A model generated the notes under the pieces. That model was not told the origin of the DNA. It saw nothing but the letters and a program-made list of their open reading frames with translations, and made no database searches. 24,000 nt of DNA from Paenibacillus faecis. GTDB lineage: Bacteria > Bacillota > Bacilli > Paenibacillales > Paenibacillaceae. Below, one piece after another: positions 1,710 to 20,473 of the stretch; position 1 is the stretch's first letter; the number at the start of each line of letters is the position of its first letter. Location: NCBI RefSeq assembly GCF_008084145.1, contig NZ_VSDO01000004.1, positions 300,202 through 324,201 on the forward strand. The letters run 5' to 3'. The position numbers were made by a program, and so were the translations under genes.

Positions 1710-1785
1710 AACACCTCTCATGATAATCCTAAAGGGAGAGTTTGACCTGTCCGCGGTTGCGGATTTGTGTAGCAGCTCGTTTTTT

Positions 1786-1980
1786 CAAATTAACGGGAAA
1801 ACCTCCCGTTAATTTGGTGCCTATGTGGCTGCAGAGGTGAATTACCTGGAAAATCTCCCGCTAATTTGTCCGAAATGGCCCATTTCTTAGGCCGAGGCGC
1901 GAATTAGATGGAGTTTTTCCAGTTAATCGGACTCAAGGGTCAAGAGCGGCAAGTTTAACGGGAGTTTTTCCCGTTAAATT
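1786..1980 (+). repeat. Repeat family 1, copy A: about 195-bp array of four palindromic modules (TTAACGGGA-N4-6-TCCCGTTAA and variants)
   Basis: Modules are at about 1790-1813, 1841-1866, 1903-1927 and 1954-1977. The copy aligns end to end with 3548-3745 (same orientation) and with the reverse complement of 17592-17786. Confidence 0.85.
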
Positions 1981-2132
1981 CTACATATCGGCAAAGCTCT
2001 CCTTCCTCTGATAGGTATGGCATTGAAACTTCGTTTTCCAACGCGCAAATAGTAGAATAGAATAGAATAAGTTGGAACTTGTAACACATAGTCAAGCAGG
2101 AACAAATAGTATTAACGAGAGGATGTAATATA

Positions 2133-3518
2133 GTGCCAGCCCCGAATGCGCAAATTTCTCCCAGACTGATTTCATTATTAACGGATCGACCTTTATCGGA
2201 TATCCCCGAAAGTCCGTCTGCGTCTCATCTTCCGGGAGCCCTGACCAAGCTCATCAATAGAAACCGGAAGAAGTTTGAAGCCTACTCCGAGCCCAACAAG
2301 CAAACTCTGATTTGCGGCCACTGCGGCAGACAAGGCCAGTATGATCTTGGACAGATCTTGTTTGATCCAGAACAACAGGGGCGGGATGCCGAGGAATCTA
2401 TAACGGCCGACTCAGCGGCGAACGATGGAGATATGTTCAAACATTTTCAAGCAACGGGCTACTTTCGCTGCAAGCATTGTAATGGTGCGGGGAACTGGGC
2501 TGTAAAGAACCCGCTTTTTCTTATGGTTTACCTGCTAAAGATGAATGCCGACCCCATGGAAGAGCAGGCGAATTTTAGGATAGGAAAAACGGCCCTTCAC
2601 GACGGAACCTCTTTTCAATGGGTGACCGATGCGGAAGAGCATCTGCTCGATTTGCTCGCGGACCCGGACCCTGAGCAGGCCGGATTCCTGTGGAACCGCT
2701 TAGGCAACCTGTATAAACAAGGGAAAAGACCGGAGCTGGCGGCCGCGGCCTTCGAAAAATCCCTTCAAGCCGATCCGGCTCAAGCCGAATCCCACTTCAG
2801 TCTGGGACTGCTGTTGGATCAAATTCGTGAAAACGAGAAAGCGGCCTACCACTATAAGAAGCATTTGATCAGCGCCAAATATGATCGAAGAATGGATATC
2901 CTCGATTTAAGGCAGATGATGGCTGCGGCACTGCGGGCCCTGACCGGTATCCATCTGCGAACCGATGGCGGCATTGAAATCATGCCGACAAAGGAGGATG
3001 TCACTGTTTTGGACCCGTATGGAGAGACAGCAGCGGGTTTCGGTTTGGCGGAAGATAATGGCGAGTCGTTGCCTGAGCATTTGGAAATGGATTTCGATCT
3101 TATTCCGGATCAGTTGGAATCCTTTTATCCGGTAGCTGAAATGTACTTGGGGAACAGGAGGGAGGAGATACCGGAAAAGTATCGGACTTTTGACGCGATG
3201 ATCGCCAAAACACGAAAAGAGGCTGAGGCCCAGCCGGAGAGCAGGTCAGCGGCACGTCAGGCCAAATCCGGTAGAACAGTCATCGTAACCGTTAAATCGG
3301 AAGAACAGGCCGCTAAAATCTCCCGAATTTGCGAAAAATACGATTTGGAGTGTATCATAGGGATCGAATTTTTCGAGGATTTAAGCGATTTACGAAAGGC
3401 GTTGACCGAAAAGCTGTCTCCGTCCAATATTTATGAACCTTGTCCCTGCAACAGCGGCAAGAAGTTCAAATTCTGCTGCGCAGCCAAGCTGAAAAAGTTT
3501 GATTTGGACGAGTTTTGA
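2133..3518 (+). CDS. Hypothetical protein with N-terminal CxxC...CxxC zinc ribbon, central TPR-like repeats and a C-terminal SEC-C metal-binding motif
   Basis: GTG 2133 lies 8 nt after GAGAGGA. The translation contains CGHCGRQ...CKHCNG, the TPR-like stretch FLWNRLGNLYKQGKRPELAAAAFEKSLQADPAQAESHFSLGLLL, and the C-terminal CPCNSGKKFKFCC (SEC-C motif). Confidence 0.7.
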   Translation: MPAPNAQISPRLISLLTDRPLSDIPESPSASHLPGALTKLINRNRKKFEAYSEPNKQTLICGHCGRQGQYDLGQILFDPEQQGRDAEESITADSAANDGDMFKHFQATGYFRCKHCNGAGNWAVKNPLFLMVYLLKMNADPMEEQANFRIGKTALHDGTSFQWVTDAEEHLLDLLADPDPEQAGFLWNRLGNLYKQGKRPELAAAAFEKSLQADPAQAESHFSLGLLLDQIRENEKAAYHYKKHLISAKYDRRMDILDLRQMMAAALRALTGIHLRTDGGIEIMPTKEDVTVLDPYGETAAGFGLAEDNGESLPEHLEMDFDLIPDQLESFYPVAEMYLGNRREEIPEKYRTFDAMIAKTRKEAEAQPESRSAARQAKSGRTVIVTVKSEEQAAKISRICEKYDLECIIGIEFFEDLSDLRKALTEKLSPSNIYEPCPCNSGKKFKFCCAAKLKKFDLDEF

Positions 3519-3547
3519 AGAAAGTAGCCAGGGACACACGGCTTTTT

Positions 3548-3745
3548 GATCAGATTAACGGGAATTGTTCCCGTTAATCTGATGCCTATGCGGCCGCAGA
3601 GGCAAATTACCTGGAAAACCTCCCGTTAATTCGCCGGAAACCATGTGTATCGGTGTTTGGGCCGTAAATTAGATGGAGTTTTTCCAGTTAAATCGGAATC
3701 AAGGGCCAGGAGTGGAAAATTAACGGGAGGTTTTCCCGTTATTTA
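3548..3745 (+). repeat. Repeat family 1, copy B (same orientation as copy A)
   Basis: GATCAGATTAACGGGAATTGTTCCCGTTAATCTGATG ... AAAATTAACGGGAGGTTTTCCCGTTATTTAAC is collinear with copy A at roughly 80 percent identity by eye. Confidence 0.85.
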
Positions 3746-3840
3746 ACTGGAAACTGGTTAAGTATGAAAATGAAAATGAAAATAGTGCAGATTTCAGTTG
3801 TAACTTAAGGCGTTTATGTTAAGAAAACAGGAGGGCTACC

Positions 3841-5073
3841 ATGCCGGAACATCCGCAATTCAAGGAATTTAAGGAGCAGCTCAAGGCGTTGATTCGCCGC
3901 CATTCGGACCGGGGCTTCTTGCCTTACGGCGGCAGTAATCGGGTCGGTGCGGAAATGGTGGCGATCCTGGAACAAGCCGAAGCTATGGACGACCCCGTCC
4001 TGGCTTTTGATATCGAGATTATGTTGGTTAAGGAAGGAATCAAACTTCTTTCCCACGCCGATGATTCATCAGGGTCCCTGGGAGAAGCGATCCGTTTCAG
4101 CAGCCAAGCGCTTGCCGCCCTATGCGAGACGGCGGATGAAGCTAACCGGAAATACTTTTTCGAAACCCTTCTCAAGACTGCCAAACTTCAGGGAATGAGG
4201 GATTGGGCCGATTTTGGCTTTCGTCTGTTAAAAGCCGCGGTCGTGTTGGTTCGCGATGAAAAGCAGGCGCAAAAAGTCTACGAGGTGTGCGGAAGTTTCG
4301 GGACAACGTTTAGCGGCTCCAAATACCCGGATGAGCATTTGATCACTTATCAGATTGTGGAGCGGCTTGAGGGACCGGAGGCGTCAGACCGGTACCTGAT
4401 GAAGAATCTGGAAGTGTTCGAGGTCAGGGAACTGGCCGTCAACAAGGCGTTGGAAAGAAAAGACTATGCGTTGGCCGAGCAACTATGCGTTCAGGCGATG
4501 TCCCAAAGAAAAGAGTGGGGTGACCGCAACCTCAAATGGGCCCAATTCCTGGAGTCGATCTATACGGAAACCAACGACTCAGAGAAGCTGGAGGAGGTTG
4601 TTCATTACATCCTGCTCCTTGGCAAAACATTGTATTACCCGAAGCTTAAGCTGCTTTATGAAGCGAAGGGGATTTGGGAGCAAAAACGGGAGCCGCTGCT
4701 GCAAGAGCTTTCCACACAGCTTATGTCTCAGGATTACGCCTCCCTGCTGAATCAGGCCGGAGAGTTTGAGAAGTTGCTGGACCTTCTCCGTGAGCGCAAG
4801 TATCTAATTCAGTACTACGGGAAGCGGGTAGCCAAGGATTTTCCGGAAGAGACTTATCTTCTGTATGAGGCGTTTATTTTGGATCAAGCGAAGGAGGCGA
4901 CGGAGCGAAGAAGGTACAGGGAAACCTGCAAGCTTCTCCAAGAATACTTTGAGGCGGGTGCCCGGGAGGAGAGTCTGCGGTTGCTGGACCGGTTGAGTGA
5001 GATGTATCCGCGGCGCCCGGCCATGCAGGACGAACTGGACAAGCTCAAGAAGAAGCTGGAGAAGCGGAAATAG
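3841..5073 (+). CDS. Hypothetical all-alpha (repeat or TPR-like) protein, 410 aa
   Basis: ATG 3841 follows AACAGGAGGG. The ORF is long and uninterrupted with a K/E-rich helical composition. I could not recognise a catalytic motif or family. Confidence 0.65.
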   Translation: MPEHPQFKEFKEQLKALIRRHSDRGFLPYGGSNRVGAEMVAILEQAEAMDDPVLAFDIEIMLVKEGIKLLSHADDSSGSLGEAIRFSSQALAALCETADEANRKYFFETLLKTAKLQGMRDWADFGFRLLKAAVVLVRDEKQAQKVYEVCGSFGTTFSGSKYPDEHLITYQIVERLEGPEASDRYLMKNLEVFEVRELAVNKALERKDYALAEQLCVQAMSQRKEWGDRNLKWAQFLESIYTETNDSEKLEEVVHYILLLGKTLYYPKLKLLYEAKGIWEQKREPLLQELSTQLMSQDYASLLNQAGEFEKLLDLLRERKYLIQYYGKRVAKDFPEETYLLYEAFILDQAKEATERRRYRETCKLLQEYFEAGAREESLRLLDRLSEMYPRRPAMQDELDKLKKKLEKRK

Positions 5074-5108
5074 CGGAGATCCTTTCCTTCAAGCACAAGG
5101 ATCTCCGC
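5074..5108. terminator. Hairpin between convergent genes (possible bidirectional terminator)
   Basis: GCGGAGATCC (5074-5083) pairs with GGATCTCCGC (5099-5108), a perfect 10-bp stem with a 15-nt loop. The T-tract is weak or distant, so confidence is moderate only. Confidence 0.45.
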
Positions 5109-5121
5109 GCCGCTCTCGTTT

Positions 5122-5958
5122 TTACGAGGACAACTCCACCTCATCGGCATTGGGACTAACCTCGTCCCCGTACCGCTCCAACGCTTTGGTGGACGCCTCC
5201 AGCATTCTCCGCTTCAAGTAGTCGCCCTCCAGAATCCGCACCCGTTTGCCGAGAAAACGGATTTTGGACAGGAGATACTCCACCTCGTCCCCCAGAACGC
5301 AGACGCGGAGGCGATAGGTGCCTTGCTCTTCATCGTATTCGACGGTTTTCTCGAAGCAGGAAAAAGCGTACAAAATGCGCGACAACTCTTTGTGGTATTC
5401 CCGGACCACCTCCAGGACGGTTTCCGTCTTTCGCGAGTCCAGCGTCCGGGCGATTTCCTCATAGACCTGGTCGGCGGCGGCCGGGTCCAGCGGTTCGGGG
5501 GCGATGGAGATCAATTTGCTCAGCCGGGTGCTCATGAGGGCATGGCGGCGCAGATCGTACCAGAGCAGATACCACTCCCTTTTGACCATGGAATATTCCA
5601 GCTTGTAAGCAAGCCCCGAACGATCGGGCTGTACCCGGCCGCGCTTGACCTGGAACGAGATCCGGATGCCGCTCCGCTCGACGATATGTCGGCGAAGGAT
5701 GCGCAGCAGCGGATGATAGACCTGTTTCTCCGCGCTTTTCGCCTTTTCGGTCAGATAATCGGAGGTGCTCAGCTCCTCTATGCTTTGCAGCAGCCCCTGC
5801 AGCTTTTGCCGGGTTTCCGGGGTAAAGGCCTCTTCGGCCGCCGGATGCTTCAGCATTTTTTTCAGCCAGGCCCGTTCGTGCGCGGTGACCATAAACGTGC
5901 CGGAATCGTCCAGACGGGAGATGACCTGGTAGTTAAAAATTTTCTCAAACGGATTCAT
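5122..5958 (-). CDS. WYL-domain protein (279 aa) without an obvious N-terminal HTH
   Basis: The WYL core reads ...LAYKLEYSMVKREWYLLWYDLRRHALMSTRLSKLISI. The C-terminal WCX-like region reads ...LLSKIRFLGKRVRILEGDYLKRRM. The ATG at 5958 (MNPFEK) follows GGAGAT and overlaps the upstream gene by 14 nt; the ORF-track start at 5988 lies inside the upstream gene. Confidence 0.75.
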   Translation of the reverse strand: MNPFEKIFNYQVISRLDDSGTFMVTAHERAWLKKMLKHPAAEEAFTPETRQKLQGLLQSIEELSTSDYLTEKAKSAEKQVYHPLLRILRRHIVERSGIRISFQVKRGRVQPDRSGLAYKLEYSMVKREWYLLWYDLRRHALMSTRLSKLISIAPEPLDPAAADQVYEEIARTLDSRKTETVLEVVREYHKELSRILYAFSCFEKTVEYDEEQGTYRLRVCVLGDEVEYLLSKIRFLGKRVRILEGDYLKRRMLEASTKALERYGDEVSPNADEVELSS

Positions 5959-7264
5959 AATAGGCCTGAATCTCCTTCCACTCGGCAATCATTTCGCGGC
6001 GAAAATAAAGCGGTTCGAGCACCTCGCAGCTGGAGCCGAAACTCCGAAGCCACGGCTTGATTTCGGTTGTGCCGTTAACCTTGATCTCGTAGATGAAGCT
6101 CTCCTCTTCCTCGGCGACGATTTGCCCCCATTGACCTTGCAGCAGGACGCGCTCCCTGACAAAGTTGGGTTCGAAATGACCGGGATTGAAAAAGCGGGCC
6201 CGCACCGTAACCGGCCGTCCGGTATCGAGCAGCCAGCTGTACCTCATCCTCTCCTCCAGTGCGGCCGCTTTCTCCGCAAATACCTGCTCGGCCACCGGGT
6301 CCTCCTCCTCGAGCTGGGTCATCCCTTCCATCCGGTATTTGCGGATGCCCTCTCTGCCGGAGGCGAGCAAATACCAGCGCCCGTATTGGTGATCGTAAAC
6401 GACCTTCAGGGGGAGGGTCTTCTCCAATTTCCCTTCCGATTCCCGTTCGAACAAGGGATTCGTATTTTGCGCGGCGTAACTTTTGTCGGCTTTGGGCGAA
6501 AAATACAAAAACCGCACCCGCCGCCGGTGCCGGATCGCGTCCAGAAGCGTGAACAAATGCGCCTCATCCAGAATCCGCGAATAATAGTGGTATTTATACA
6601 AAAAATGGTCCAGCGCCAGTGGCTCGGCCTGGTTTCGCAGCAGGTGCTTCTTTAGGCCGTCGCGGAGAAGATATCCCTGAACGGAGGGGATCTGCGTATT
6701 GGCCATCACATCCACGAAGTCGTACAGGTCGTAAAGCTCCTCTTCCGTCAATTCCCGCACCAGGTCGTTGTCCAACCGGTAGCGGTAGGGGCGGGAGGCG
6801 GACTCCTTGCGGATGACACCGACCTCTTCCAAATATTTCAGATCCGACCGAATCGTCTTCTCGTCGGGGAGCGGGATGTCGGCGGGGAGGCTGCCGCAGC
6901 AGTAGTCCATCAGCTCCATCGCCGTCAGCGCCTGGTCGTTCAGCGCGGCCAGAAGGAGCGAGTAGCGCACCGATTCCGATCCCTTCAGCGATTTCGCGCG
7001 GAACAGAAAGAGCAGCATCGGGTCGGCCGACTCGTAGTAATTAAAGCGGATCGCCTCCGCGAATTCCTTGCTCTGCTCCTGCGGCAGCTGCTGATACATC
7101 GTGCCGACGATATCCTTCAGCCGGCGCAGCGTCTTGTCGAACGTATGGACGGAGATACCGAGACGTTCGGCGAATTGCTGCCTGCTGTAGGCCCCGCTGG
7201 TCAGCACGAGCATCCGCAGAAACTGGATTTCCTTATCGAAGCTTTCTTTTGCCACCTCAACCAC
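5945..7264 (-). CDS. HTH-WYL-WCX transcriptional regulator (PafB/PafC, BrxR, CapW-type architecture), 439 aa
   Basis: The N-terminal HTH reads YSRQQFAERLGISVHTFDKTLRRLKDIV. A second winged-helix-like segment reads LTAMELMDYC...IRSDLKYLEEVGVIRKE. The WYL core reads VVYDHQYGRWYLLASGREGIRKYRMEGM. The C-terminal WCX reads IKPWLRSFGSSCEVLEPLYFRREM. The start is GTG 7264 or GTG 7255. Confidence 0.8.
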   Translation of the reverse strand: MVEVAKESFDKEIQFLRMLVLTSGAYSRQQFAERLGISVHTFDKTLRRLKDIVGTMYQQLPQEQSKEFAEAIRFNYYESADPMLLFLFRAKSLKGSESVRYSLLLAALNDQALTAMELMDYCCGSLPADIPLPDEKTIRSDLKYLEEVGVIRKESASRPYRYRLDNDLVRELTEEELYDLYDFVDVMANTQIPSVQGYLLRDGLKKHLLRNQAEPLALDHFLYKYHYYSRILDEAHLFTLLDAIRHRRRVRFLYFSPKADKSYAAQNTNPLFERESEGKLEKTLPLKVVYDHQYGRWYLLASGREGIRKYRMEGMTQLEEEDPVAEQVFAEKAAALEERMRYSWLLDTGRPVTVRARFFNPGHFEPNFVRERVLLQGQWGQIVAEEEESFIYEIKVNGTTEIKPWLRSFGSSCEVLEPLYFRREMIAEWKEIQAYYESV

Positions 7265-7273
7265 CTGTTTCCT

Positions 7274-7287
7274 GATTATGTATAATC
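7274..7287. promoter_or_regulatory. Perfect palindrome GATTAT-GT-ATAATC in the 38-nt gap upstream of the HTH-WYL gene (candidate operator or internal promoter)
   Basis: It is the only symmetric element between the VWA stop (7303) and the WYL start (7264). It contains TGTATAAT on the + strand and CATAAT on the - strand. The function is inferred only. Confidence 0.25.
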
Positions 7288-7302
7288 CTATTTTAACAGG
7301 CG

Positions 7303-9126
7303 TCAGTCCATTCGGAAAACTTTGCCCTTGGGCACGAAGGGAAGATGGTGGCCTTTCGGAATCAGGAAAGCGTGCTCGCGGCGGATGCTCACCCGGTCGC
7401 AGTAGCCGTCCGTGATGATCAACAACGGGCCGCTTTTCGGAAAATCCCCGGCATGCTCGAGCAGATCGATGGCCGGCTGCAGGATTGTTCCGCCCCTGCC
7501 TTTGACGGAGACGCGGTCCGCAATCGCTTCCGGCGCGAGGTATCCTTGATCATAGACGGCCGCGTCGCAAAACACGACCCGGACGAGCGGCACATCCCGG
7601 GCCATGCTGTAGCTGGCGATCGCCCCAAGGGCCTTGCCCAGCAGCTTGGTGTCCATGGAACCGGAGGTATCCAGAACCACCCCGAAGGTGCGGCCGTCCT
7701 CGGCTCCCGCATCCGGCACCCAGCGGGGGCGGGGAATATCGGGGGTGGACGCTTGCCGGCGGCTGATCCTGGCGTAAGTCCGGACTTTTTCCAGCGGGGA
7801 AAAGTAGTTGTCGAACCACTTCGCCAGTTCCACGTCCCACAGGATCGGGGGCTGGGACAAGGCCCGGATCTCCTCGATCAGACCCGCCGGCAGGAAGCCC
7901 CGGTTTTGGTCAAAATGATAATCGAGCCCTTGGCTAAGACAGCTCCGATAAAATTCATCCAGTGTCAGCCCGTCTTTTCGGTCCCACCAATCGGGGACCT
8001 TCGGCTCCAGAATATCGCCCGTTCCGACGCCGCGAAAAGTCGCGACTTTCCGGTACAGCCGCATGTCCGTGACGATCCGGTCGTAAACGGATTCCGCCGA
8101 CAGTCCTTTAAGCTCCGGGTCATGCAGGCCTCCCACCCGCGGAAAGGCGCCCAACCCCATTTCCATAAGCCACCCGTTGATGACATAGTCGCAGGCGACA
8201 TTCCACAGATAGGGGTCACGCCCTTCCGCGCGGGCATGGTGCCGTAGTCCGACGTGCAGAAATTCGTGGGCGAGCACAAAACGGCATTCCTGCTCGTCCA
8301 GCCCGGCTGCAGGGTTGACGTAGATTTCCTTGGCCTCGGCATCGACGGCGGCCACCGAAATCGACAGGCGGGTGCAGAGCAGAGGATCCTCAATGATCCG
8401 GAAGTCCGCCGCCATCGCGCCCATCAGCGGGTAACTGCTGACAAACCAGTTACGGGCTTTCATTGCGGGCGTTAAAATATCGCGGTTTGCGCCGAGGTAA
8501 GCTTCATATCCCGCCGATACGTTGACCGCGCTCGTCACGGCCATGGCGAGCCCTTTGCCCAGCAAATCCTGCCAGTTGACGTTCTTGTTACCCCAGTAAG
8601 AGCGGTCGGAAGCCCTTGAGCTTAGGAGCATATCCTGGTGTCCGGGCCCAGCCGTGCCCAAGTTATGAAAGGAAGGGGGAAGCCCCTGGTCGATGAAGCT
8701 GCGATAGAGATCTTCTTCGGCCCCCTTTCCGGAAGGGATCTCTACCGACCCGTTCATCCCCTCAGGGGGCTTGCCCAGCCGCATATCGTATAGAAACTTG
8801 GCGATAAAAGCGTCGCAGGCCGTGTTCCACATGTCCTGCCGTTCCATTACCTTGAAATGCCCGAAACCTAGATGCAGAAGAGCATGGGCCAGAATGTAAA
8901 TCCATTCTTCGGGCAGGGCCCTGCGTTTCGGATGAACATGGATATACCCGCTGCTTGTCGTGACCGCCCAGCCGTTATCCGGACAGAGATTGCCCTCCAT
9001 GCGCACAAAATGAGCGTGCGACGCGAGCGGGGCAAACATCGGGTGACGGGAGATAAGCCGCAGCCCCTCCTCATAAGCCCGTGTGGCCGGGTCCATTTCT
9101 CCGGATTTTTGTTTTTGTTTTCCCAT
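7303..9126 (-). CDS. VWA-domain protein with two tandem DUF2201-type putative metallopeptidase modules (partner of the MoxR ATPase), 607 aa
   Basis: There is an internal duplication. Module 1 reads LAHALLHLGFGH...WNTACDAFI, with HALLH at nt 8872-8886 and the Glu lost. Module 2 reads LAHEFLHVGLRHH...WNVACDYVI, with HEFLH at nt 8254-8268. The C-terminal VWA carries the MIDAS motif VVLDTSGSMD (7657-7671). The ATG at 9126 lies 6 nt after the stop of the upstream ATPase gene. Confidence 0.85.
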   Translation of the reverse strand: MGKQKQKSGEMDPATRAYEEGLRLISRHPMFAPLASHAHFVRMEGNLCPDNGWAVTTSSGYIHVHPKRRALPEEWIYILAHALLHLGFGHFKVMERQDMWNTACDAFIAKFLYDMRLGKPPEGMNGSVEIPSGKGAEEDLYRSFIDQGLPPSFHNLGTAGPGHQDMLLSSRASDRSYWGNKNVNWQDLLGKGLAMAVTSAVNVSAGYEAYLGANRDILTPAMKARNWFVSSYPLMGAMAADFRIIEDPLLCTRLSISVAAVDAEAKEIYVNPAAGLDEQECRFVLAHEFLHVGLRHHARAEGRDPYLWNVACDYVINGWLMEMGLGAFPRVGGLHDPELKGLSAESVYDRIVTDMRLYRKVATFRGVGTGDILEPKVPDWWDRKDGLTLDEFYRSCLSQGLDYHFDQNRGFLPAGLIEEIRALSQPPILWDVELAKWFDNYFSPLEKVRTYARISRRQASTPDIPRPRWVPDAGAEDGRTFGVVLDTSGSMDTKLLGKALGAIASYSMARDVPLVRVVFCDAAVYDQGYLAPEAIADRVSVKGRGGTILQPAIDLLEHAGDFPKSGPLLIITDGYCDRVSIRREHAFLIPKGHHLPFVPKGKVFRMD

Positions 9127-9132
9127 AATCGA

Positions 9133-10194
9133 TCAGGCTTCCTTCTTCTGCACAAGTCTGGGCAAGTCCCGAACGATCTCCACCAGGAACCAATCCGGCA
9201 GACTCTCGCCGGCTTCGTCCCTGGCCACGGCCAGTTGGGCGATTTCGAGACTGATCGCGCTTAAATTTTTGAGCAGGGCCTTGGCGCGGTGGGCCAGCTT
9301 CTTATGATGTTCGGCGAGCGCGTCCTTGGATTCCGGCAGCTCCTTGATCAGGTGAGCCCGGAAAGACTGGGCCATAAAGTAAAGCACATCCCGGTCCTCC
9401 GGCTGGTGGGGCCAGTTCGCTCCGCCTTCGATAATCTCATGCAGCTTGTATTTATAATGGCTTTGCTTATAAAAAGCCTTCAGCTGCCCGGCGTGATGCG
9501 GCGATAGACAGCCCGTAGCAAGCACTTCCAGGGTATCCGGCCGCAGCCGATCCCCGTATTCCTTCAGCGCATCGCTTAACATATGCCACGATCTTGGCGT
9601 GGAGAACGGTTCCTCGTGCTTCGGCGGCTGAACCCACAGATGATCCGGGCGCGTCTCGATATATTGAATGACCAGGGGGTGGAGCTCGTTCTCGTAAGCC
9701 CACTCCAGCCATTCGCGGTGGGAAACCTTAAGCTGCACATGAAACATGCGGTTCATGAGCGCGGACGACATCGGCTTCACAATCGCGCTGTCCTGCGCCC
9801 GGTTTCCGGCTCCAATGACGACCGAGCCTTCCGGCAGACGGTATTCGCCGACGCGTTTTTCCAGAATCAAGCTGTAAAAAGCTTTCTGTACCTCGTGCGT
9901 GCAGGCGTTCAACTCATCCAGAAACAGGCAGTACGGCTCGTTTCGGGCGATCATGCTCGGCGGGCAAAACCGGCTCACCCCGCCGACGATTTGCGGCACC
10001 CCGATGAGGTCTTCCGGTGCCAGCTGGCTGCCGAGCAGCGAGACGCAAGGCAAGCCGACCAGATCGGCAAACCGCTGAACCAGCGAGGATTTTCCCACGC
10101 CCGGCGGCCCCCAGATAAACACCGGGCGGACGACGGCTACGTTTAATAGCAGCTCCATTAATTGCTTGGATGTTACAGAGGATGAAATATTCAT
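9133..10194 (-). CDS. MoxR-class AAA+ ATPase (CbbQ/NorQ/AAA_5-like), 353 aa
   Basis: Walker A reads FIWGPPGVGKSS (nt 10087-10110) and Walker B reads CLFLDELN. The sensor and Arg-finger region reads VIGAGNRAQDSAIVKPMSSALMNRM. It is immediately followed by a VWA partner, as in CbbQ/CbbO and NorQ/NorD pairs. Confidence 0.85.
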   Translation of the reverse strand: MNISSSVTSKQLMELLLNVAVVRPVFIWGPPGVGKSSLVQRFADLVGLPCVSLLGSQLAPEDLIGVPQIVGGVSRFCPPSMIARNEPYCLFLDELNACTHEVQKAFYSLILEKRVGEYRLPEGSVVIGAGNRAQDSAIVKPMSSALMNRMFHVQLKVSHREWLEWAYENELHPLVIQYIETRPDHLWVQPPKHEEPFSTPRSWHMLSDALKEYGDRLRPDTLEVLATGCLSPHHAGQLKAFYKQSHYKYKLHEIIEGGANWPHQPEDRDVLYFMAQSFRAHLIKELPESKDALAEHHKKLAHRAKALLKNLSAISLEIAQLAVARDEAGESLPDWFLVEIVRDLPRLVQKKEA

Positions 10195-10236
10195 GCTTTA
10201 TAATGATTTCCTTCCCTAAAAATTAACGTTATGAAC

Positions 10237-10245
10237 ATGATACCA
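10237..10245 (-). promoter_or_regulatory. Possible extended -10 (TGGTATCAT on the - strand) for the moxR-vwa-wyl operon
   Basis: The reverse complement of 10237-10245 is TGGTATCAT, about 40 nt upstream of ATG 10194. There is no convincing -35. Confidence 0.25.
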
Positions 10246-10431
10246 TAGGGTCCTTGAGGCGCAGGCCCGAAAAGATGGCTATACCCGTTTTGTCCCAAAA
10301 GGGGCCGGTTGCCGCGGACGGGACGGGGAGGAACCTTGGTCAGCGGTCGGCACCTCATTGGAGTTGTAATTAACCCGAGAGGGCTAACGCCTGTAACAGC
10401 CTTCCTCTGAAACCGGGCAGGGGGATAAGTG

Positions 10432-10640
10432 AATAAGAGCCTTTTGCGGCGCGATTTTGTCGAATTTGGCTCTTTGGCGTGAAATAGCGGTCTTTTGGGG
10501 CCTTATTTTAGAGAAAGTCGGGCAAAAACCGGATTTTGGGCTCGCACCAGAGAAATAAGGCCCTTTCTGGCCGCTATTTTTCCCGAAAACGCAAATCGGG
10601 CCGAAATAGCGGCCCAAAATGCCGCTATTGTGGCGGGCGG
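10432..10640 (+). repeat. Repeat family 2, copy 1: about 210-bp structured element built from AATAGCGG/CCGCTATT and AAATAAGGCC/GGCCTTATTT inverted units
   Basis: It aligns collinearly with 18576-18784 in the same orientation, for example ATTTTGTCGAATTTGGC, GAAATAAGGCC and GGCCGAAATAGCG. It contains nested inverted repeats, for example AAATAGCGGTC...GGCCTTATTT against AAATAAGGCC...GGCCGCTATTT. Confidence 0.8.
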
Positions 10641-10805
10641 CCGGGCGGACCGGGGAATTGGCGGCTCGGATCGATCGGCTCGTCACCATCCCCCTCAAAA
10701 ACCGGCTAAATTTTCCCCTCGTAATACTTTTGCCATGTTCGCGCGCGTAAAAATGAGCGAAGATAGGTTCACAAGGTCATCGCCGCAAGGGGACGGCCGA
10801 GTGAG

Positions 10806-10941
10806 ATCTTCGAGGCGCCTGGACGGGATCCTTCGCCTTTTAAGCGACTGGCCGTTGGTTCGAATCCAACTTCCGCCTAACGGCGGAATAGCTCAGAGGT
10901 AGAGCAGTTTATGTGACCTGTCCGCCTTTTTCCTCGAAGAT
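10806..10941 (+). ncRNA. yrlA: Y RNA 1, YrlA-type: Ro-binding-like basal helix plus a circularly permuted tRNA-like domain
   Basis: The basal stem ATCTTCGAGG (10806-10815) pairs with CCTCGAAGAT (10932-10941). A second stem pairs GGACGGG (10821-10827) with CCTGTCC (10918-10924), across the internal loop CGCCT / GCCTTTTT. Inside are a T-arm GTTGG-TTCGAAT-CCAAC (10854-10870), a closed acceptor-like stem TTCCGCC-TAAC-GGCGGAA (10871-10888), then TA and a D-arm GCTC-AGAGGTA-GAGC (10891-10905). It sits directly upstream of rsr. The exact 5' and 3' ends are unknown. Confidence 0.8.
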
Positions 10942-10965
10942 GAGTTGCATCAAATGCAGGAACGC

Positions 10966-11064
10966 GCGCGAGGCGCCTGAGAGGGTTACTTCGACTAATT
11001 AGGGATTAGTAATGATCGTGCCGGAGGGCACAGCAGCCTTCTCAACAAGCTTTCTTCCTCGCGC
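10966..11064 (+). ncRNA. Y RNA 2 (small, YrlB-like): same basal architecture with no tRNA-like module
   Basis: GCGCGAGG (10966-10973) pairs with CCTCGCGC (11057-11064). GAGAGGG (10979-10985) pairs with CCTTCTC (11037-11043). It shares the 5' motif GAGGCGCCTG...GGGTTACTTCG with the neighbouring Y RNAs. Internal hairpins are ACTAAT-TAGGG-ATTAGT and GTGCC-GGAG-GGCAC. Confidence 0.6.
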
Positions 11065-11090
11065 ACCCGTTCCCAGCACATCTAAATAAT

Positions 11091-11205
11091 ACCGGTGAGG
11101 CGCCGGGGCGGGTTACTTCGCCATCCAAGCGCACTTATGGAATTACCGGGCTTTACGGCAGGTTCGACTCCTGCACCGAACCCGCCCCTCTTTTTCCTCA
11201 CCGGT
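11091..11205 (+). ncRNA. Y RNA 3: same basal architecture plus a T-arm-like hairpin
   Basis: ACCGGTGAGG (11091-11100) pairs perfectly with CCTCACCGGT (11196-11205). GGGGCGGG (11105-11112) pairs with CCCGCCCC (11181-11188), across the loop CGCC / TCTTTTT. It has the GGGTTACTTCG motif and the T-arm-like GCAGG-TTCGACT-CCTGC (11158-11174). Confidence 0.65.
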
Positions 11206-11267
11206 GTTATCTAAATATTCCGTTGGGCGTCATTGCACTCACACACGGATATAGGAGGTTATTTAAA

Positions 11268-12773
11268 ATGAGTTTCGCCCAAAAATTGTTCGGTCCGTTC
11301 AGACCGACCACTCGCAACAAAGATCATTATCCCGCTTATACGCGGTCTGCGGAGGAACAGTACCTGCAGACTTTGCTGACCAATACGATGAGCAATACGT
11401 TTTATGCCGATCAAAAAGAACTCCTGAGCGATGCCGAGCAGCTCCACCATGAAATGGCGGCGGCCAACCCGACGTTTATGGCAAAAGCGCTCGTGTTCGC
11501 CCGCAACACCGGCCTGATGCGCCTGCAGCCGATCTTCGGCTTGGCGGTGCTCTCGGCCTACCGGCCGGATTTGTTCGCCAAGGTGTTCCCGCAGGTCGTG
11601 CGGATTCCTTCCGACCTGTTCGACTTCCTGACCATTCTGAAGGGTCAGGGTCGGGGCGAGGGCGGCCGTGCGGTCAAGCGCCAGGTGAACCACTTCCTGG
11701 CCGGCGTCAGCGAATACTGGGCCGTCAAATACAACGGCCGCGGCCGCGGCTACAGCCTGGGTGACGTGATCGCCACGGCCCATCCGAAGCCGGCGGACTT
11801 GAAGCAGCAGGCGCTGTTCCGGTACCTGCGCGGCTGGGAGGCCGACCTCGAGCTGCTGCCGCAGGTGGCGGCGCTGGAGCGGCTGAAGCGCGCCGCGAGC
11901 GAAAGCGAGCAAATCGAGTGGATCGGCCGCGGCAAGCTTCCGTACGAGACGGTCACCGGCGCGATTCAGCCGACCAAGGCCGTGTGGGAGGCGTTGCTGT
12001 ACCAGATGCCGACCTTTGCGCTGCTCCGCCACCTGAACGCCCTGCAGCGGGCGGGCGTCCTCGACGACAAGCGGAACCTGGACTACGTCATCGCGCGGTT
12101 CAACGATGAGGAGGCGCTGCGCAAGGCGCGCATCCTGCCGTTCCGGTTCGCGACGGCGTTCCGTCAGGTCGAGCATCCCGATCTGCGCGACGCGATGCGG
12201 GACGCGGTGGACCTGACTTTCGGCAACCTGCCGGATTTGGGTGAGGACACGGCGATTTTCCTGGACATCTCCGGCTCGATGGAGGGACAATACCTGGAGA
12301 CCGGTTCGGTATTTGCCCTGGCCCTGTATAAGAAGACGCAGGGGAACTCGCTGTTCTGGCTGTTCAACCACGAGGTCCGCGACGCGAGACCTTCGAAGCG
12401 CGACAGCATTCTCGGCCAGGCGCAGCATATCCGCGCCGGCGGCGGGACCGATACCGGTGCCCCCGTGCGCAAGCTGCTCCTGGAGCGCAAGCGGGTGGAC
12501 CAGATCATTATCATTACGGATGAGCATCAAAACACCGGCAGCCCGTTCTACCGGGAGCTGGCCCAGTACCGTGCCGCCATCAACCCGGAAGTCAAGGCGT
12601 TCATCGTGGACATCGCTCCTTACCGGTACGCGATGGTGCCGGAAATGGACCGCAACACCTTTTACATCTACGGTTGGAGCGACACGGTCCTGTCCTACAT
12701 TGCCCAGACGCTGCAAGGCTACGCGTCCATGACGAAGCAAGTGGATGCCATGGACCTCGACAAGAAGGAGTGA
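11268..12773 (+). CDS. rsr: Ro60 orthologue Rsr (TROVE domain + C-terminal vWA with MIDAS), 501 aa
   Basis: ATG 11268 lies 9 nt after GGAGG (11254-11258). The N-terminal TROVE-like sequence reads ...YLQTLLTNTMSNTFYADQKELL...AKALVFARNTGLMRLQPIFGLAVL. The vWA MIDAS reads AIFLDISGSM...GGGTDTG...IIITDE. It is flanked upstream by Y-RNA-like genes. The ORF-track TTG at 11223 has no RBS. Confidence 0.9.
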   Translation: MSFAQKLFGPFRPTTRNKDHYPAYTRSAEEQYLQTLLTNTMSNTFYADQKELLSDAEQLHHEMAAANPTFMAKALVFARNTGLMRLQPIFGLAVLSAYRPDLFAKVFPQVVRIPSDLFDFLTILKGQGRGEGGRAVKRQVNHFLAGVSEYWAVKYNGRGRGYSLGDVIATAHPKPADLKQQALFRYLRGWEADLELLPQVAALERLKRAASESEQIEWIGRGKLPYETVTGAIQPTKAVWEALLYQMPTFALLRHLNALQRAGVLDDKRNLDYVIARFNDEEALRKARILPFRFATAFRQVEHPDLRDAMRDAVDLTFGNLPDLGEDTAIFLDISGSMEGQYLETGSVFALALYKKTQGNSLFWLFNHEVRDARPSKRDSILGQAQHIRAGGGTDTGAPVRKLLLERKRVDQIIIITDEHQNTGSPFYRELAQYRAAINPEVKAFIVDIAPYRYAMVPEMDRNTFYIYGWSDTVLSYIAQTLQGYASMTKQVDAMDLDKKE

Positions 12774-12779
12774 TCCCCT

Positions 12780-13577
12780 ATGACCCAGGAATCGTCCGAA
12801 TTCCGCCCCGTCATCCTGAACGAGCTTCGGCGCATTGAAGAGCAGGAAGGGGTTCGTATTCTGTACGCCTGCGAGTCGGGAAGCCGCGCTTGGGGCTTCC
12901 CTTCGCGGGACAGCGACTACGATGTCCGGTTTCTTTATATCCGGCCTCTGGACTGGTATCTATCCATTTTTGAGGGACGGGATGTGATCGAGCGGCCGAT
13001 CAGCGATCAACTGGACATCAACGGTTGGGACTTGAAGAAGGCCTTGCAGCTATTCCGCAAATCGAACCCGCCCTTATTGGAATGGCTGTATTCTCCGATA
13101 CAATATTTGGAGAAGTATTCCGTGGCGGAGCAGATCCGCCGCATATCCCCGCTGACGTTTTCGCCAAAATCATGCATATACCATTATCTCAACATGGCGA
13201 AGGGGAATTTCCGGGGATACCTGCAAGGGGAACGGGTGAAGATCAAGAAGTATTTCTACGTACTGCGGCCGGTGCTCGCCTGCGGCTGGATCGAGAAGCA
13301 CAATACGATGCCTCCGGTGGAGTTCGATAAACTGGTGGAGGACTTGATCCCGCCGGAAAGCGCACTGATGGATGCGGTTCAACGCCTGCTTGCTCGCAAA
13401 AAAGCCGGGGAAGAGCTTGATCTGGAGCCTAAGTTGACCGCCATCCACGAATATTTGGAGGAGCGCTTGGATTACTTCGAGGAGGCGGCCGCCCAATTCA
13501 GGACAGAACCGTTGCAGCTCGAAGACGAGCGGTTGGACGCCCTCTTTCGCTCCGCCTTGCGCGAGGTATGGGCGTAG
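12780..13577 (+). CDS. Pol-beta-superfamily nucleotidyltransferase (RlaP-like, RNA-ligase/repair-associated NTase)
   Basis: The NTase motif reads LYACESGSRAWGFPSRDSDYDVRFLY (GS...DxD). The ATG lies 6 nt after the rsr stop, with GAAGGAG upstream. The family assignment is from memory of the PF10127-type sequence pattern. Confidence 0.75.
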   Translation: MTQESSEFRPVILNELRRIEEQEGVRILYACESGSRAWGFPSRDSDYDVRFLYIRPLDWYLSIFEGRDVIERPISDQLDINGWDLKKALQLFRKSNPPLLEWLYSPIQYLEKYSVAEQIRRISPLTFSPKSCIYHYLNMAKGNFRGYLQGERVKIKKYFYVLRPVLACGWIEKHNTMPPVEFDKLVEDLIPPESALMDAVQRLLARKKAGEELDLEPKLTAIHEYLEERLDYFEEAAAQFRTEPLQLEDERLDALFRSALREVWA

Positions 13578-13623
13578 AGGCGGGCAACCGCGTACATATT
13601 TTCACATTGGAAGAAGGTTCATT

Positions 13624-14892
13624 ATGGCTATCGTACAGGTTACATCCACGAATCCGAAGTTTTCATTTTTGATCAAGAAAAATCCGCAATCCGGTATGCA
13701 GCTGCGCTCGGTTCGCAAAGGGACGGCGTACGGCTGGTATAGCGGTGAACAGACCTTTAACGTGTATTTTAAAGACGCGGACAACGATATTTCGTATAAG
13801 CAGCATGAGGGGGAGACTTTCGAGTACCTGAACGTGTCGAGATACAATACGCCGCTGTTTCCGTTGAACGCGATCGGCGAGTTCTTTTCCGCTCCGTTAA
13901 AAGCGCGGCATGAGCAGGATACGGAGGGGTATGAGCATACCTTTTTCATCAATATGATTCATATCGAACGGTTGCCGTATATCGATTTTTTCAAGAAGCA
14001 CTTGCAGGATTTCTCATTCGAAATCACCCACCGGGCGCACAAAAGCTATGCCCTGACCGTTAGGACGCACAAAAGCCTGTACCAGCTCCTTCACGCGGTG
14101 AGCGTATTGTGCTTGTTCCTGTCGATGTTCGGCAATGAGCACGTGGATATTTCGGACAGCATTCTGGACAAATACATCAAGAGCCTCCATGTGATCGACG
14201 CGCCGTTTTACATTCGGAGCTTGTTCGTACGGAATTTTCTGGCTTCCCGGGACCGGTTCAAAAAATACAAGGCGGAGCTCGAGAAGACGGACCGCTACAG
14301 CATTCGCTTTGCTTTTGGCGGCACGGCGCTGCAGCGGCGGAACTACATCGGAAGCGCGCTCGCTTTTGACAAGTCGATTCTCGACGTGGGCTGCGGGGAA
14401 GGATTCTACGCGATTCCTTTTGCCGGAAAAATCGAAGGCAGCTATTACGCGGTCGATATCAACGAGGAGCTGTTGGAGCAAGTCCAGCGGAAGGCCGCGC
14501 GAAAAGAGCTGGACAATATCATCACGTTCGCTTCGATCGATCTTTTTCTGGAGAGCTACAACGGGGAACGGGTCGATGTGATTTTGACCGAGGTCATCGA
14601 GCATATGAGCCAGGAGGAAGCGGAGCGACTGATCCGGCAAATCTGCGGGCAGGTGGATTTCGACCGGTTGATCATCACGACGCCGAATGCCGACTTTAAC
14701 CGCTATTATGAGTTGGAGGGTTTCCGGCACGACGATCACAAATGGGAGCTGGGCGGAGCTTCGTTCCAGGCCTGGATCGGCGATCTGTTGAAGCGCTTCG
14801 CGAACTTGCAGTATGAATTTGTGGCCATCGGCGACGAGGTCGACGGGATCACCACGACCCAAGGGGTTATTTTGAAGAGAGAGGGGGCCTGA
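13624..14892 (+). CDS. hen1: Bacterial Hen1, RNA 3'-terminal ribose 2'-O-methyltransferase
   Basis: The N-terminal Pnkp-activating domain begins MAIVQVTSTNPKFSFLIKKNPQSGMQ... The C-terminal SAM-methyltransferase carries ILDVGCGEGFYAIPFA, the metal motif LTEVIEHM and ...FRHDDHKWE. It ends 3 nt before pnkp. Confidence 0.9.
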   Translation: MAIVQVTSTNPKFSFLIKKNPQSGMQLRSVRKGTAYGWYSGEQTFNVYFKDADNDISYKQHEGETFEYLNVSRYNTPLFPLNAIGEFFSAPLKARHEQDTEGYEHTFFINMIHIERLPYIDFFKKHLQDFSFEITHRAHKSYALTVRTHKSLYQLLHAVSVLCLFLSMFGNEHVDISDSILDKYIKSLHVIDAPFYIRSLFVRNFLASRDRFKKYKAELEKTDRYSIRFAFGGTALQRRNYIGSALAFDKSILDVGCGEGFYAIPFAGKIEGSYYAVDINEELLEQVQRKAARKELDNIITFASIDLFLESYNGERVDVILTEVIEHMSQEEAERLIRQICGQVDFDRLIITTPNADFNRYYELEGFRHDDHKWELGGASFQAWIGDLLKRFANLQYEFVAIGDEVDGITTTQGVILKREGA

Positions 14893-14895
14893 TCC

Positions 14896-17517: not shown

Positions 17518-17529
17518 TGACGATGCACA

Positions 17530-17567
17530 AGAGCCTGAACCGCCGGGAGGGGGTTCAGGCTCTTTTT
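17530..17567 (+). terminator. Rho-independent terminator of the rsr-pnkp operon
   Basis: AGAGCCTGAACC (17530-17541) pairs perfectly with GGTTCAGGCTCT (17552-17563), a 12-bp stem followed by TTTT. It lies 13 nt after the pnkp stop. Confidence 0.8.
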
Positions 17568-17591
17568 GGGGCATCCGTGCCGCTCTGAATA

Positions 17592-18856: not shown

Positions 18857-18930
18857 GCAATCAAGGACAGGTTGGTAGAATCCGCCAACAGAACAATCAC
18901 AGCACAACCAACAGAACGAAGGGGGTGAAC

Positions 18931-19488
18931 ATGATGCTGGATTCAAATTCGGAGAAAGGGCTCAGCAAGCTGATGAGCAAAATGCTCCGCCATACCCCGG
19001 AGGAATTCGGCCTTCAACTGAGTCCCGAAGACGGGTCGTGCGCGATGGACACGTTTCTCCAGGCGGTCACGGCCCAGCGGCGGTGGTCCTGGGTACGGCG
19101 CGAAGATGTGGAGCAGGTCGTCCGCAACTCCGATAAGCAGCGTTACATCATCGAGAATGACCGCATCCGGGCCAGATACGGCCACAGTCACACTCGGGTG
19201 CAGTACGCTCCGGCCGAGCCTCCCGCCGTGTTATACCACGGAACGAACCGGAAGGCGCTCCCGGCCATACTCCAGGAAGGACTTCGCCCGATGACGCGGC
19301 AATATGTCCATCTGTCGGAAGGGACGCATTTCGCCACGCTGGCGGGGAGCCGCCGAGGAGAGCTAGTCATCCTCCGGATCAATACGCAAAAAGCGAGGGA
19401 GGCGGGCGTGAGCTTTTACTTCGCCGGGAATGAAGTATGGCTGGCCGATCGGATCCCGCCGGGATGCTGCGAAATGGACGGAACCTAG
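18931..19488 (+). CDS. kptA: RNA 2'-phosphotransferase, Tpt1/KptA family
   Basis: The translation reads LSKLMSKMLRHTPEEFGLQL...RYGHSH...VLYHGTNRKALPAILQEGLRPMTRQYVHLSEG. This carries the Arg-His-Arg-Arg catalytic-tetrad context of Tpt1. ATG 18931 lies 5 nt after GAAGGGGG; the alternatives are 18925 and 18934. Confidence 0.85.
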   Translation: MMLDSNSEKGLSKLMSKMLRHTPEEFGLQLSPEDGSCAMDTFLQAVTAQRRWSWVRREDVEQVVRNSDKQRYIIENDRIRARYGHSHTRVQYAPAEPPAVLYHGTNRKALPAILQEGLRPMTRQYVHLSEGTHFATLAGSRRGELVILRINTQKAREAGVSFYFAGNEVWLADRIPPGCCEMDGT

Positions 19489-20465: not shown

Positions 20466-20473
20466 GGGAAGAG

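Follow-up and report, generated by a model that had tools for sequence, protein, structure and literature searches.

Several AAA+ ATPases act through a partner protein that carries a von Willebrand factor A (VWA) domain with a metal ion-dependent adhesion site (MIDAS). CbbQ–CbbO, NorQ–NorD and RavA–ViaA are each a tightly coupled two-gene unit of a helix-2-insert AAA+ ATPase and a VWA partner with an intact MIDAS. Midasin pulls proteins off pre-60S ribosomes, and hence acts on a ribonucleoprotein particle (RNP). To our knowledge, the present picture of bacterial RNA repair comprises the RNA-end enzymes (RtcB, RtcA, Pnkp/Hen1 and Tpt1), the scaffolds formed by Rsr and Y RNA, and PrfH, and includes no ATP-driven remodelling or proteolytic component. 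A pair of a MoxR ATPase and a metallopeptidase-vWA protein has been described in jumbo phages, with a proposed role in virion assembly (Iyer et al. 2021; PMC7824862), and RtcB together with PrfH has been experimentally proven to form a ribosome rescue-and-repair module (PMC9304027, PMC9223846). Here, we describe a related pair in a 24,000-nucleotide stretch of Paenibacillus faecis DNA (contig NZ_VSDO01000004.1, positions 300,202 to 324,201), hereafter the window. An AAA_5/MoxR-like AAA+ ATPase of 353 residues (9133–10194, minus strand; assigned by Pfam AAA_5 and its motifs) is followed by a DUF2201-family protein of 607 residues (7303–9126, minus strand; assigned by Pfam, self-BLAST and motifs). 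The two genes lie at the edge of a large RNA-repair island, and we tentatively read the pair as an accessory of RNA-repair cassettes that remodels and cleaves proteins, driven by ATP and mediated by the MIDAS.

The 607-residue protein consists of a pseudo-zincin module, an active-type zincin module, a helical linker and a VWA/MIDAS domain in this order. Module 1, the degenerate zincin-like one (about residues 10–170; nt 8617–9099, minus strand, as for all positions within this gene), was delimited by self-BLAST and is modelled with a predicted local distance difference test (pLDDT) score of ~90. Module 2, the active-type zincin (about residues 215–360; nt 8047–8484), was assigned from motif conservation and from matches to selecase in hidden Markov model (HMM) and Foldseek searches. 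The first-pass annotation of the window had noted an internal duplication, with HALLH in the first copy and HEFLH in the second, and both are present. Module 1 contains the motif LAHALLHLGFGH (residues 79–90, nt 8857–8892), in which the ligand-site residues H81-A82-L-L-H85...H90 read HALLH with Ala at the position of the catalytic Glu, and a WNTACD element at residues 100–105 (nt 8812–8829). The corresponding motif of module 2 is LAHEFLHVGLRH (residues 285–296, nt 8239–8274), with the canonical HExxH sequence HEFLH at the site H287-E288-F-L-H291...H296, and a WNVACD element at residues 308–313 (nt 8188–8205). Module 2 therefore has a complete HExxH, including the catalytic Glu and both His ligands, and module 1 does not. 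A BLASTP comparison of the first half of the protein with the second half gives 28% identity over 166 residues (E = 4e-11), and modules 1 and 2 are true paralogues, the duplication being beyond what is expected by chance.

Three Pfam profiles had been proposed as a check of the families, and all of them match above their cut-offs. DUF2201_N (PF13203) covers two stretches of the 607-residue protein (E = 1.2e-27, 97.6 bits against a cut-off of 23.2), and the DUF2201 VWA-like model (PF09967) is borderline at 26.9 bits against 26.4, so that both DUF2201-family models exceed their gathering scores. AAA_5 (PF07728) matches the ATPase with 47 bits against a cut-off of 22. Close homologues of the 607-residue protein are named "DUF2201 family putative metallopeptidase" by NCBI, and no NCBIfam model matches either this protein or the ATPase.

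The VWA domain occupies residues 478–607 (nt 7306–7695), as judged from Pfam DUF2201, Foldseek and invariant motifs. Its MIDAS motif DTSGS, which the annotation had placed in a C-terminal VWA domain, is D486-T-S-G-S490 (nt 7657–7671), and the distal MIDAS residues are T547 (within nt 7474–7494) and D573 (within nt 7402–7416). Integrin I domains, the VWA domain of CLCA1 and the MIDAS domains of Rea1/MDN1 match the domain with a Foldseek probability of 1.0. The 607-residue protein thus contains a VWA domain with an intact MIDAS, as defined by the DxSxS motif, the distal Thr and Asp and the VWA fold. The helical linker (residues 361–477, nt 7696–8046), recognized from its invariant columns, ends with a near-invariant SRRQxxTPDIPRP segment directly before the VWA domain, and its pLDDT in the AlphaFold models is lower than that of the modules. 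The full-length AlphaFold model has a mean pLDDT of 83 and a predicted template modelling (pTM) score of 0.44, the range over the AlphaFold models being 0.44–0.45. Because of this low pTM score, the individual domains are predicted confidently but their mutual arrangement is not.

Minigluzincins, such as selecase (MJ1213) and proabylysin, are minimal soluble zincins related to the catalytic cores of the M48 and M56 peptidases. When residues 1–470 were modelled separately, Foldseek returned just two meaningful matches in the Protein Data Bank (PDB), and these are selecase (4QHF; probability 0.99, 2.7 Å over 76 residues, 29% identity) and proabylysin (4JIU; probability 0.89). Selecase was also found at the sequence level with the family profile (E = 2e-4). 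A match to Peptidase_M78 (IrrE N-terminal-like) at the HExxH region of the homologues (E ~1e-3) stays below the cut-off. The assignment of modules 1 and 2 to a peptidase fold seems reasonable, and it rests mainly on motif conservation.

Conservation was analysed in an alignment of 174 homologues of ~600 residues with 45–98% identity, which come from Bacillota, Cyanobacteria, Armatimonadota, Planctomycetota, Pseudomonadota, Acidobacteriota, Actinomycetota and other phyla. Position 82 of module 1 is never Glu in any of them, being Cys in 135, Ala in 24, Gly in 7 and Ser in 6. H81, H85 and H90 are retained in most lineages, and the His residues of module 1 are lost too in the deepest branches (L046 and L051–L057). 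In contrast to the dead site, H287-E288-x-x-H291 of module 2 is kept in 173 of the 174 homologues, and the extended motif HExxHxxxxH (H287-E288-x-x-H291-x-G-x-x-H296) and the element W308-N309-x-A-C312-D313 are invariant in the family alignment. The DTSGS motif is likewise invariant in all 174 sequences, and T547 and D573 are invariant in 64 homologues. The tandem of a pseudo-active and an active module, which had been proposed from the window alone, therefore recurs in the alignment, and the split into a dead and a live module is family-wide rather than a quirk of the 607-residue protein. Whether Ala, Cys, Gly or Ser replaces the catalytic Glu depends on lineage only and shows no correlation with an RNA-repair context.

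Inteins typically occupy functionally critical sites. An intein of ~350 residues with a LAGLIDADG homing endonuclease is inserted exactly at A311|C312 in four separate 50%-identity clusters (P0123, P0179, P0188 and P0194), with junctions reading "...YLWNVA|CFPAG...LVHN|CDYVIN..."; the insertion point corresponds to nt ~8191–8196 of the window. Because inteins prefer such sites, this insertion indirectly supports a location of the WNxACD element in the live active site. The same four homologues of ~960 residues had been considered as fusions of the ATPase with the DUF2201 protein, and this was rejected: they have no similarity to the ATPase, and the extra 350 residues are the intein. No report of inteins in DUF2201 proteins was found in the literature searched.

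The two-module architecture is uncommon within the superfamily. A HMMER scan over 1.84 billion representatives found 8,695 clusters at 50% identity with E ≤ 1e-3 and only 282 with E ≤ 1e-30, so that the two-module sub-clade would comprise at most 282 of the 8,695 representative clusters. Phage relatives (458 records) match residues 183–577 only, with ~25% identity, and structures of 380–450 residues in BFVD agree with this single-module phage form. Because these relatives cover only that part of the protein, the common DUF2201 form has one peptidase module, and the 607-residue protein, with two N-terminal modules instead of the usual one, is an architectural variant within DUF2201. The two-module form is a small, mostly bacterial sub-clade. 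Since viral contigs hold just three full-length two-module copies, this sub-clade is not mainly a phage gene.

The ATPase has the intact Walker A and Walker B motifs that the first-pass annotation had ascribed to it, GPPGVGKS (residues 29–36, nt 10087–10110) and LFLDELN (residues 90–96, nt 9907–9927), and a sensor-1 segment GAGNRAQD (nt 9790–9813); all three are conserved in 47 ATPase homologues. The label "MoxR AAA+" holds in part. The AAA+ motifs and the AAA_5 match support it, but the bpMoxR model scores 21.6 bits, below its cut-off of 27, and a single-sequence phmmer search places midasin/Rea1 first among the solved relatives, through its AAA modules (E = 3e-9), with AFG2/SPATA5 and NVL next. 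CbbQ, NorQ and RavA are absent from the 60 best phmmer matches among solved sequences. "MoxR" is thus best regarded as a loose label, and the robust assignment is an AAA_5 ATPase with a cognate VWA/MIDAS partner in a MoxR-type organization.

The genomic context was analysed in 150 loci, of which 66 are contigs from one genome per species, 80 are metagenomic and 4 are viral. Upstream sequence of 1.3 kb or more is available for 128 loci, and in 119 of these the ATPase gene directly neighbours the DUF2201 gene on the same strand, as had been supposed from the single pair in the window, and the gaps between the two genes are mostly −11 to +25 nt. In the window, 6 nt separate the ATPase stop codon from the DUF2201 start. 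The ATPase and the DUF2201 protein are an obligate pair and one unit.

HMMs were built for Rsr, RtcB, RtcA, RlaP, Hen1, Pnkp and Tpt1, and all open reading frames (ORFs) of the loci were searched with them. At least one RNA-repair gene is present within 10 kb in 18 of the 66 genome loci, and in 17 of the 80 loci of the independent metagenome sample, where the median flank is only ~3 kb. In the combined set, 35 of 150 loci carry a repair gene, in 33 cases within 3 kb of the pair. RtcB occurs in 19 loci, Pnkp in 14, Hen1 in 10, Rsr in 9, RlaP in 8, Tpt1 in 6 and RtcA in 5. RtcB is the most frequent of 215 families in an unbiased Pfam census of 143 immediate neighbours outside Paenibacillaceae. 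The flanks, ~2.1 Mb of DNA, contain 71 repair-gene matches, which we estimate, without a formal test, to be far above chance for genes that number a handful per genome. The repair-linked loci are scattered over the family tree and show at least six gene orders, and the association is seen in at least five phyla.

The arrangement is most extensive in a Nitrosospira locus (L023), where Rsr, YrlA, RtcB, RtcA, an RlaP-like protein, RlaP, Hen1, the ATPase, the DUF2201 protein and Pnkp follow one another on one strand, with a YrlA match of 80 bits, above the Rfam threshold. This stretch of a metagenome-assembled genome (MAG), positions 1304–14375, is in itself a very complete single-strand repair operon with both ligation pathways in one predicted unit. 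The order Hen1–pair–Pnkp recurs in L086 and L087. The clostridial loci L014 and L016 have the order pair–Rsr–RtcB–WYL, and RtcB precedes the pair in the Planctomycetota locus L027. In a Faecalibacterium MAG (L045, ~5215–10951), a divergent WYL-WCX regulator is followed by the ATPase, the DUF2201 protein, RtcB and an RF-1-domain (PrfH-like) protein, and L047 is organized likewise; the gap to RtcB is 0–7 nt in L045, L047, L120 and L130. The pair thus directly adjoins the ribosome rescue-and-repair module in L045, and three tandem MMR_HSR1-type GTPase genes lie upstream. The RtcB and Pnkp/Hen1 ligation systems are the common denominator of the repair-linked loci. Association with RNA repair is thus recurrent yet facultative, which makes the pair an accessory that repair operons acquire repeatedly and not one of their core members. 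The general idea of an ATPase–VWA machine tied to a repair system gains support from these comparisons.

In six more loci the pair is preceded by a gene of the RNase II (RNB) family, at 0.75–1.1 kb in L051, L053, L054, L064 and L065 and at 4.1 kb in L009, and this neighbourhood may be a second RNA-related context of the pair. The loci linked to RNase II are of Competibacteraceae type plus one from Cohnella, and module 1 lacks the His ligands in L051 and L053. A neighbour cluster, "c1_273", initially ranked as the top conserved neighbour with 18 loci. Its members range from 132 to 1,494 residues and have no Pfam match, and it is probably a clustering artefact.

From the observed domain composition, motif conservation, obligate pairing and recurrent neighbourhoods, we infer hexamer formation, capture through the MIDAS, proteolysis and the nature of the target. 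Both genes would encode one machine, with a hexameric AAA_5/MoxR-like ATPase as the motor and the cognate VWA/MIDAS protein as the part through which it acts. A target protein would be bound at the MIDAS by way of one of its acidic residues, force from the ATPase would remodel or extract this target, and module 2, which is predicted to be catalytically competent, would cleave it. Module 1, the decayed copy, is most likely a non-catalytic binding or regulatory partner. As a mobile and self-contained cassette, the pair would have entered RtcB-type and Pnkp/Hen1-type operons on repeated occasions, whether or not these also contain Rsr and Y RNA; in the window it would face a Y RNA–rsr–rlaP–hen1–pnkp operon across a shared control region. 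It could supply an ATP-driven protein-handling step in the response to RNA damage, with the target being a protein that blocks repair or causes the damage, for instance a ribotoxin, or a protein that is trapped on tRNA, rRNA or ribosomes after their breakage. Because the RtcB and Pnkp/Hen1 systems have broken RNA in common but not their chemistry, an accessory shared by both is likelier to handle protein than RNA ends. Such a protein-removal role would fit the similarity that both the ATPase and the VWA domain show to midasin. A more speculative possibility, which we hold with considerable doubt, is that the pair is a bacterial two-protein counterpart of midasin joined to a protease, in which the ring and the MIDAS adaptor pull a protein off and the zincin cuts it. 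Removal would then take place on stalled ribosomes or on damaged tRNA or rRNA, and the protein removed could be a ribotoxin bound there, a ribosomal factor or a protein that has become trapped or cross-linked.

Several points weigh against the reading of the pair as a remodelling and proteolysis accessory of RNA repair. The flanks that could be searched contain no repair gene in 115 of the 150 loci (~77%), and RNA-repair neighbours are absent from all cyanobacterial loci. Since the cassette evidently works without such neighbours, its core target need not be RNA-related. The Foldseek E-values for the peptidase fold are weak (0.1–0.2), and the pTM score leaves the arrangement of the domains without a prediction. 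The similarity to midasin may reflect mere shared AAA_5 ancestry. Classical MoxR–VWA systems are mostly chaperones for cofactor insertion or activation and not proteases. No biochemical data on any DUF2201 protein were found in the literature searched, and the target protein can be named at candidate level only.

The 115 loci without RNA-repair neighbours and the spread of the neighbours over 215 Pfam families would also be expected if the pair were a general stress, chaperone or defence-island cassette that has landed beside mobile repair operons and shares no pathway with them. Single-module relatives are common in phages, as seen from the 458 records and the BFVD matches, where a role in virion assembly has been proposed (PMC7824862), and some copies of the pair are carried on plasmids (L026). 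However, a chance landing does not readily account for a pair that sits inside an operon between Hen1 and Pnkp on the same strand (L023, L086 and L087), nor for the gaps of 0–7 nt to RtcB in four loci. The association extends over at least five phyla with differing gene orders, it was replicated in the second, metagenome sample, and the 71 repair-gene matches are by estimate far above expectation. No PADLOC defence model matches the ATPase or the DUF2201 protein, and only the WYL regulators were matched. An unrelated neighbour is therefore an unlikely explanation.

We consider it still less probable that the pair is a metallochaperone, which would insert or exchange metal in RtcB or in the calcineurin-like phosphatase of Pnkp as NorQ/NorD, CoxD/CoxE and BchI/BchD do for their own clients. 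In this case, the His-rich site of module 1, which lacks a catalytic Glu, would serve as a metal holder; it keeps H81, H85 and H90, and in the 135 of 174 homologues with Cys in place of the Glu a closed four-ligand site would result. The commonest neighbours are metal enzymes, namely RtcB, Pnkp with its Metallophos domain and, in L044, a stand-alone Metallophos protein, and known MoxR–VWA pairs insert metal (PMC9976466, PMC13036017). However, the invariant catalytic-type Glu in the HExxH of module 2 would be superfluous in a pure metal carrier, several lineages have lost all His ligands of module 1 with the rest conserved, and most loci have no metal-enzyme neighbour.

The minus-strand block of the window continues beyond the pair. 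In head-to-tail order, the ATPase and DUF2201 genes are followed, 38 nt further on, by the gene for an HTH-WYL-WCX transcription regulator of 439 residues (5945–7264, minus strand; Pfam WYL and WCX, PADLOC WYL) and by that for a second, shorter WYL-like protein of 288 residues (5122–5988, minus strand; PADLOC WYL, E = 2e-10), the two overlapping by 44 nt. A promoter and terminator scan of 4900–11400 yielded no more sites than shuffled sequence, so that the operon structure here rests on gene spacing alone, from which the pair is predicted to form one transcript with the two WYL genes. The shorter WYL-like gene is conserved in L001–L003 and L006, and WYL regulators stand beside the pair also in L002, L003, L006, L014, L016 and L045. 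The two WYL proteins of the window would replace RtcR as the regulator of the RNA-repair island. The back-to-back WYL-type proteins recall the PafB/PafC pair. Between the ATPase gene and the Y RNA/rsr genes, the divergent spacer contains clustered imperfect inverted repeats of 26 nt (10481–10634), which are built on AAATAGCGGCC / GGCCGCTATTT, and these repeats are candidate operators for the WYL regulators.

Such regulators beside the pair, the inverted repeats in the divergent control region and the weak Peptidase_M78 match (E ~1e-3) would suit a regulatory protease, in which module 2 cleaves the adjacent WYL regulator upon RNA damage and thereby switches the repair operon on, in the manner of IrrE/DdrO and ImmA/ImmR. 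However, WYL genes occur at only 6 of the 66 genome loci and at none of the 84 loci of the second sample, IrrE-type proteases work with neither an AAA+ ATPase nor a VWA domain, and the M78 similarity is below threshold, making this explanation very unlikely.

The divergent spacer of 1.07 kb separates the ATPase start from the likely rsr ATG at 11268, 1,073 nt away on the opposite strand. Rsr, a Ro60 orthologue (11268–12773, plus strand; Pfam TROVE and vWA_Ro60, NCBIfam Rsr), has a MIDAS of its own, DISGS (nt 12264–12278); its presence ~1 kb away on the other strand had been noted correctly, but its role as a specific partner of the ATPase is not borne out, since Rsr occurs in only 9 of the 150 loci, mostly beside RtcB or Pnkp/Hen1, and RtcB and Pnkp are commoner neighbours. 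In L014 and L016 the pair is immediately followed by Rsr, and in L023, L077 and L086 both belong to one operon. In L012, the sole Rsr locus with neither RtcB nor Pnkp, it is 6.7 kb from the pair on the opposite strand. Because every other Rsr locus also carries RtcB or Pnkp, Rsr is not separable from them as a partner. A model in which the ATPase engages the Rsr MIDAS, with or without the MIDAS of its own partner, and so governs loading, unloading or proteolysis of the Ro–Y RNA particle is thus very unlikely: two MIDAS-bearing VWA domains in one locus, the loci with adjacent Rsr and the finding of no partner of the bacterial Ro vWA domain in the literature searched speak for it, but the rarity of Rsr, its inseparability from RtcB or Pnkp and the fact that the ATPase always has its own VWA partner speak against it.

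Within this divergent intergenic region, upstream of rsr, the plus strand carries three tandem Y-RNA-like genes (10808–10940, 10964–11066 and 11093–11206), assigned by a sub-threshold match to Rfam YrlA and by folding. Each begins with ...GAGGCGCC and ends with the complementary ...CCTC(G), and all three fold as a terminal stem, an internal loop and a second stem (z = −2.6 to −3.1). The first alone has a tRNA-like module and an Rfam YrlA match (39 bits, E = 1e-6, gathering score 69). At the gathering threshold, Rfam finds no Y RNA in the window, the YrlA-like match appearing at the E-value threshold only. Because the match is below the gathering score and confined to the first gene, the three genes would escape standard annotation. 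They are followed by rsr, rlaP (12780–13577; Pfam RlaP, E = 1e-98), hen1 (13624–14892; Pfam Hen1_N, E = 3e-106) and pnkp (14896–17517; Pfam PNKP_ligase, Metallophos and AAA_33), all on the plus strand. A 1,186-residue ORF antisense to pnkp (14014–17574, minus strand) is in all likelihood no gene but a spurious shadow of the Pnkp coding sequence.

Further downstream of pnkp, three plus-strand genes identified by Pfam stand in a row, for the RNA 2'-phosphotransferase Tpt1/KptA (18925–19488), an R2K-clade ATP-grasp protein (19437–20465) and an ADP-ribosylglycohydrolase (20462–21349), and form an NAD/ADP-ribose-linked extension of the repair island. This extension is seen also in other Paenibacillaceae loci (L003–L007), where Tpt1 and R2K lie near the pair. 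On the other side, the island is flanked by a tetratricopeptide repeat (TPR) protein with a C-terminal SEC-C/SWIM-like metal-binding motif (2133–3518, plus strand) and by a 410-residue protein with no family match (3841–5073, plus strand). Both are kept only in the closest related locus, L001 of P. sanfengchensis, whose proteins are 95–98% identical. TPR proteins are among the listed accessories of RFH–RtcB systems (PMC6514570).

If the reading as a midasin counterpart joined to a protease is correct, the pair would represent an unrecognised "clear the protein first" step used by both RtcB-type and Pnkp/Hen1-type RNA repair. The presence of an AAA+/MIDAS/zincin cassette in repair operons of several phyla suggests that removal or destruction of protein is often part of the response, and gives a concrete lead, open to experiment, to a step that may be missing from the known scheme of bacterial RNA repair. 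It would also be the first functional lead for the uncharacterised DUF2201 superfamily, with its ~8,700 clusters at 50% identity. The family-wide tandem of a pseudo-enzyme and an enzyme would be a clean case of a decayed catalytic module retained beside a live one. No report of the two-module form or of an association between MoxR/vWA and RNA repair was found in a search that left out the main survey of 2016 (Burroughs and Aravind, NAR 44:8525), and because this neighbourhood survey lay outside the search, a prior mention of the pair is possible. A 2019 list by the same authors of accessories of RFH–RtcB systems names TPR and Pol-beta NTase genes, and neither MoxR nor vWA (PMC6514570).

The closest described systems share parts of this architecture and differ in others. 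A radiation-induced operon of Deinococcus deserti with MoxR and a CoxE-like VWA protein (Deide_18690–18730) is induced together with RtcB (PMC4007540, PMC5552922). However, its VWA protein belongs to a different family with no peptidase modules reported, and the operon is not adjacent to repair genes, so that it is a loose precedent. CLCA1 combines a zincin and a MIDAS-bearing VWA domain in one chain, and its VWA domain is among the best structural matches of the 607-residue protein, the measured likeness being confined to that domain; in contrast, CLCA1 is a eukaryotic, secreted and self-cleaving protein and has no AAA+ partner. Among solved structures, modules 1 and 2 match the minigluzincins alone, with a common arrangement of strand and helix bearing HExxH. 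They are stand-alone proteins of ~110 residues, the match covers the strand and active-site helix region only, and the region of the third ligand differs, being HExxHxxxxH with WNxACD in the present family.

Midasin/Rea1 is the best solved sequence match of the ATPase, and its MIDAS domain is among the matches of the VWA domain. However, midasin is a single chain of ~5,000 residues with six AAA modules and without a peptidase, whereas in the pair the ATPase, of 353 residues, has a single AAA module, and the MIDAS is on a second protein that also bears the zincin modules. The jumbo-phage pair and the single-module DUF2201 proteins share DUF2201_N, the DUF2201 VWA domain and the pairing with an ATPase. 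Only one peptidase module is present in the phage proteins and in the common bacterial form, which span 380–450 residues and are ~25% identical to the 607-residue protein; the latter has an extra degenerate N-terminal module and a context of RNA repair instead of the proposed virion assembly. CbbQ–CbbO, NorQ–NorD and RavA–ViaA share with the pair the two-gene organization outlined at the outset. Unlike CbbO, NorD and ViaA, the partner described here carries two zincin-like modules, which would imply proteolysis rather than cofactor insertion or activation; unlike CbbQ, NorQ and RavA, the ATPase stays below the bpMoxR cut-off, and none of these three is among its 60 best phmmer matches to solved sequences. 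The context is RNA repair and not respiration or Rubisco. The pair is therefore an architectural and contextual variant of the known theme of an AAA+ ATPase with a VWA partner rather than a new kind of system.

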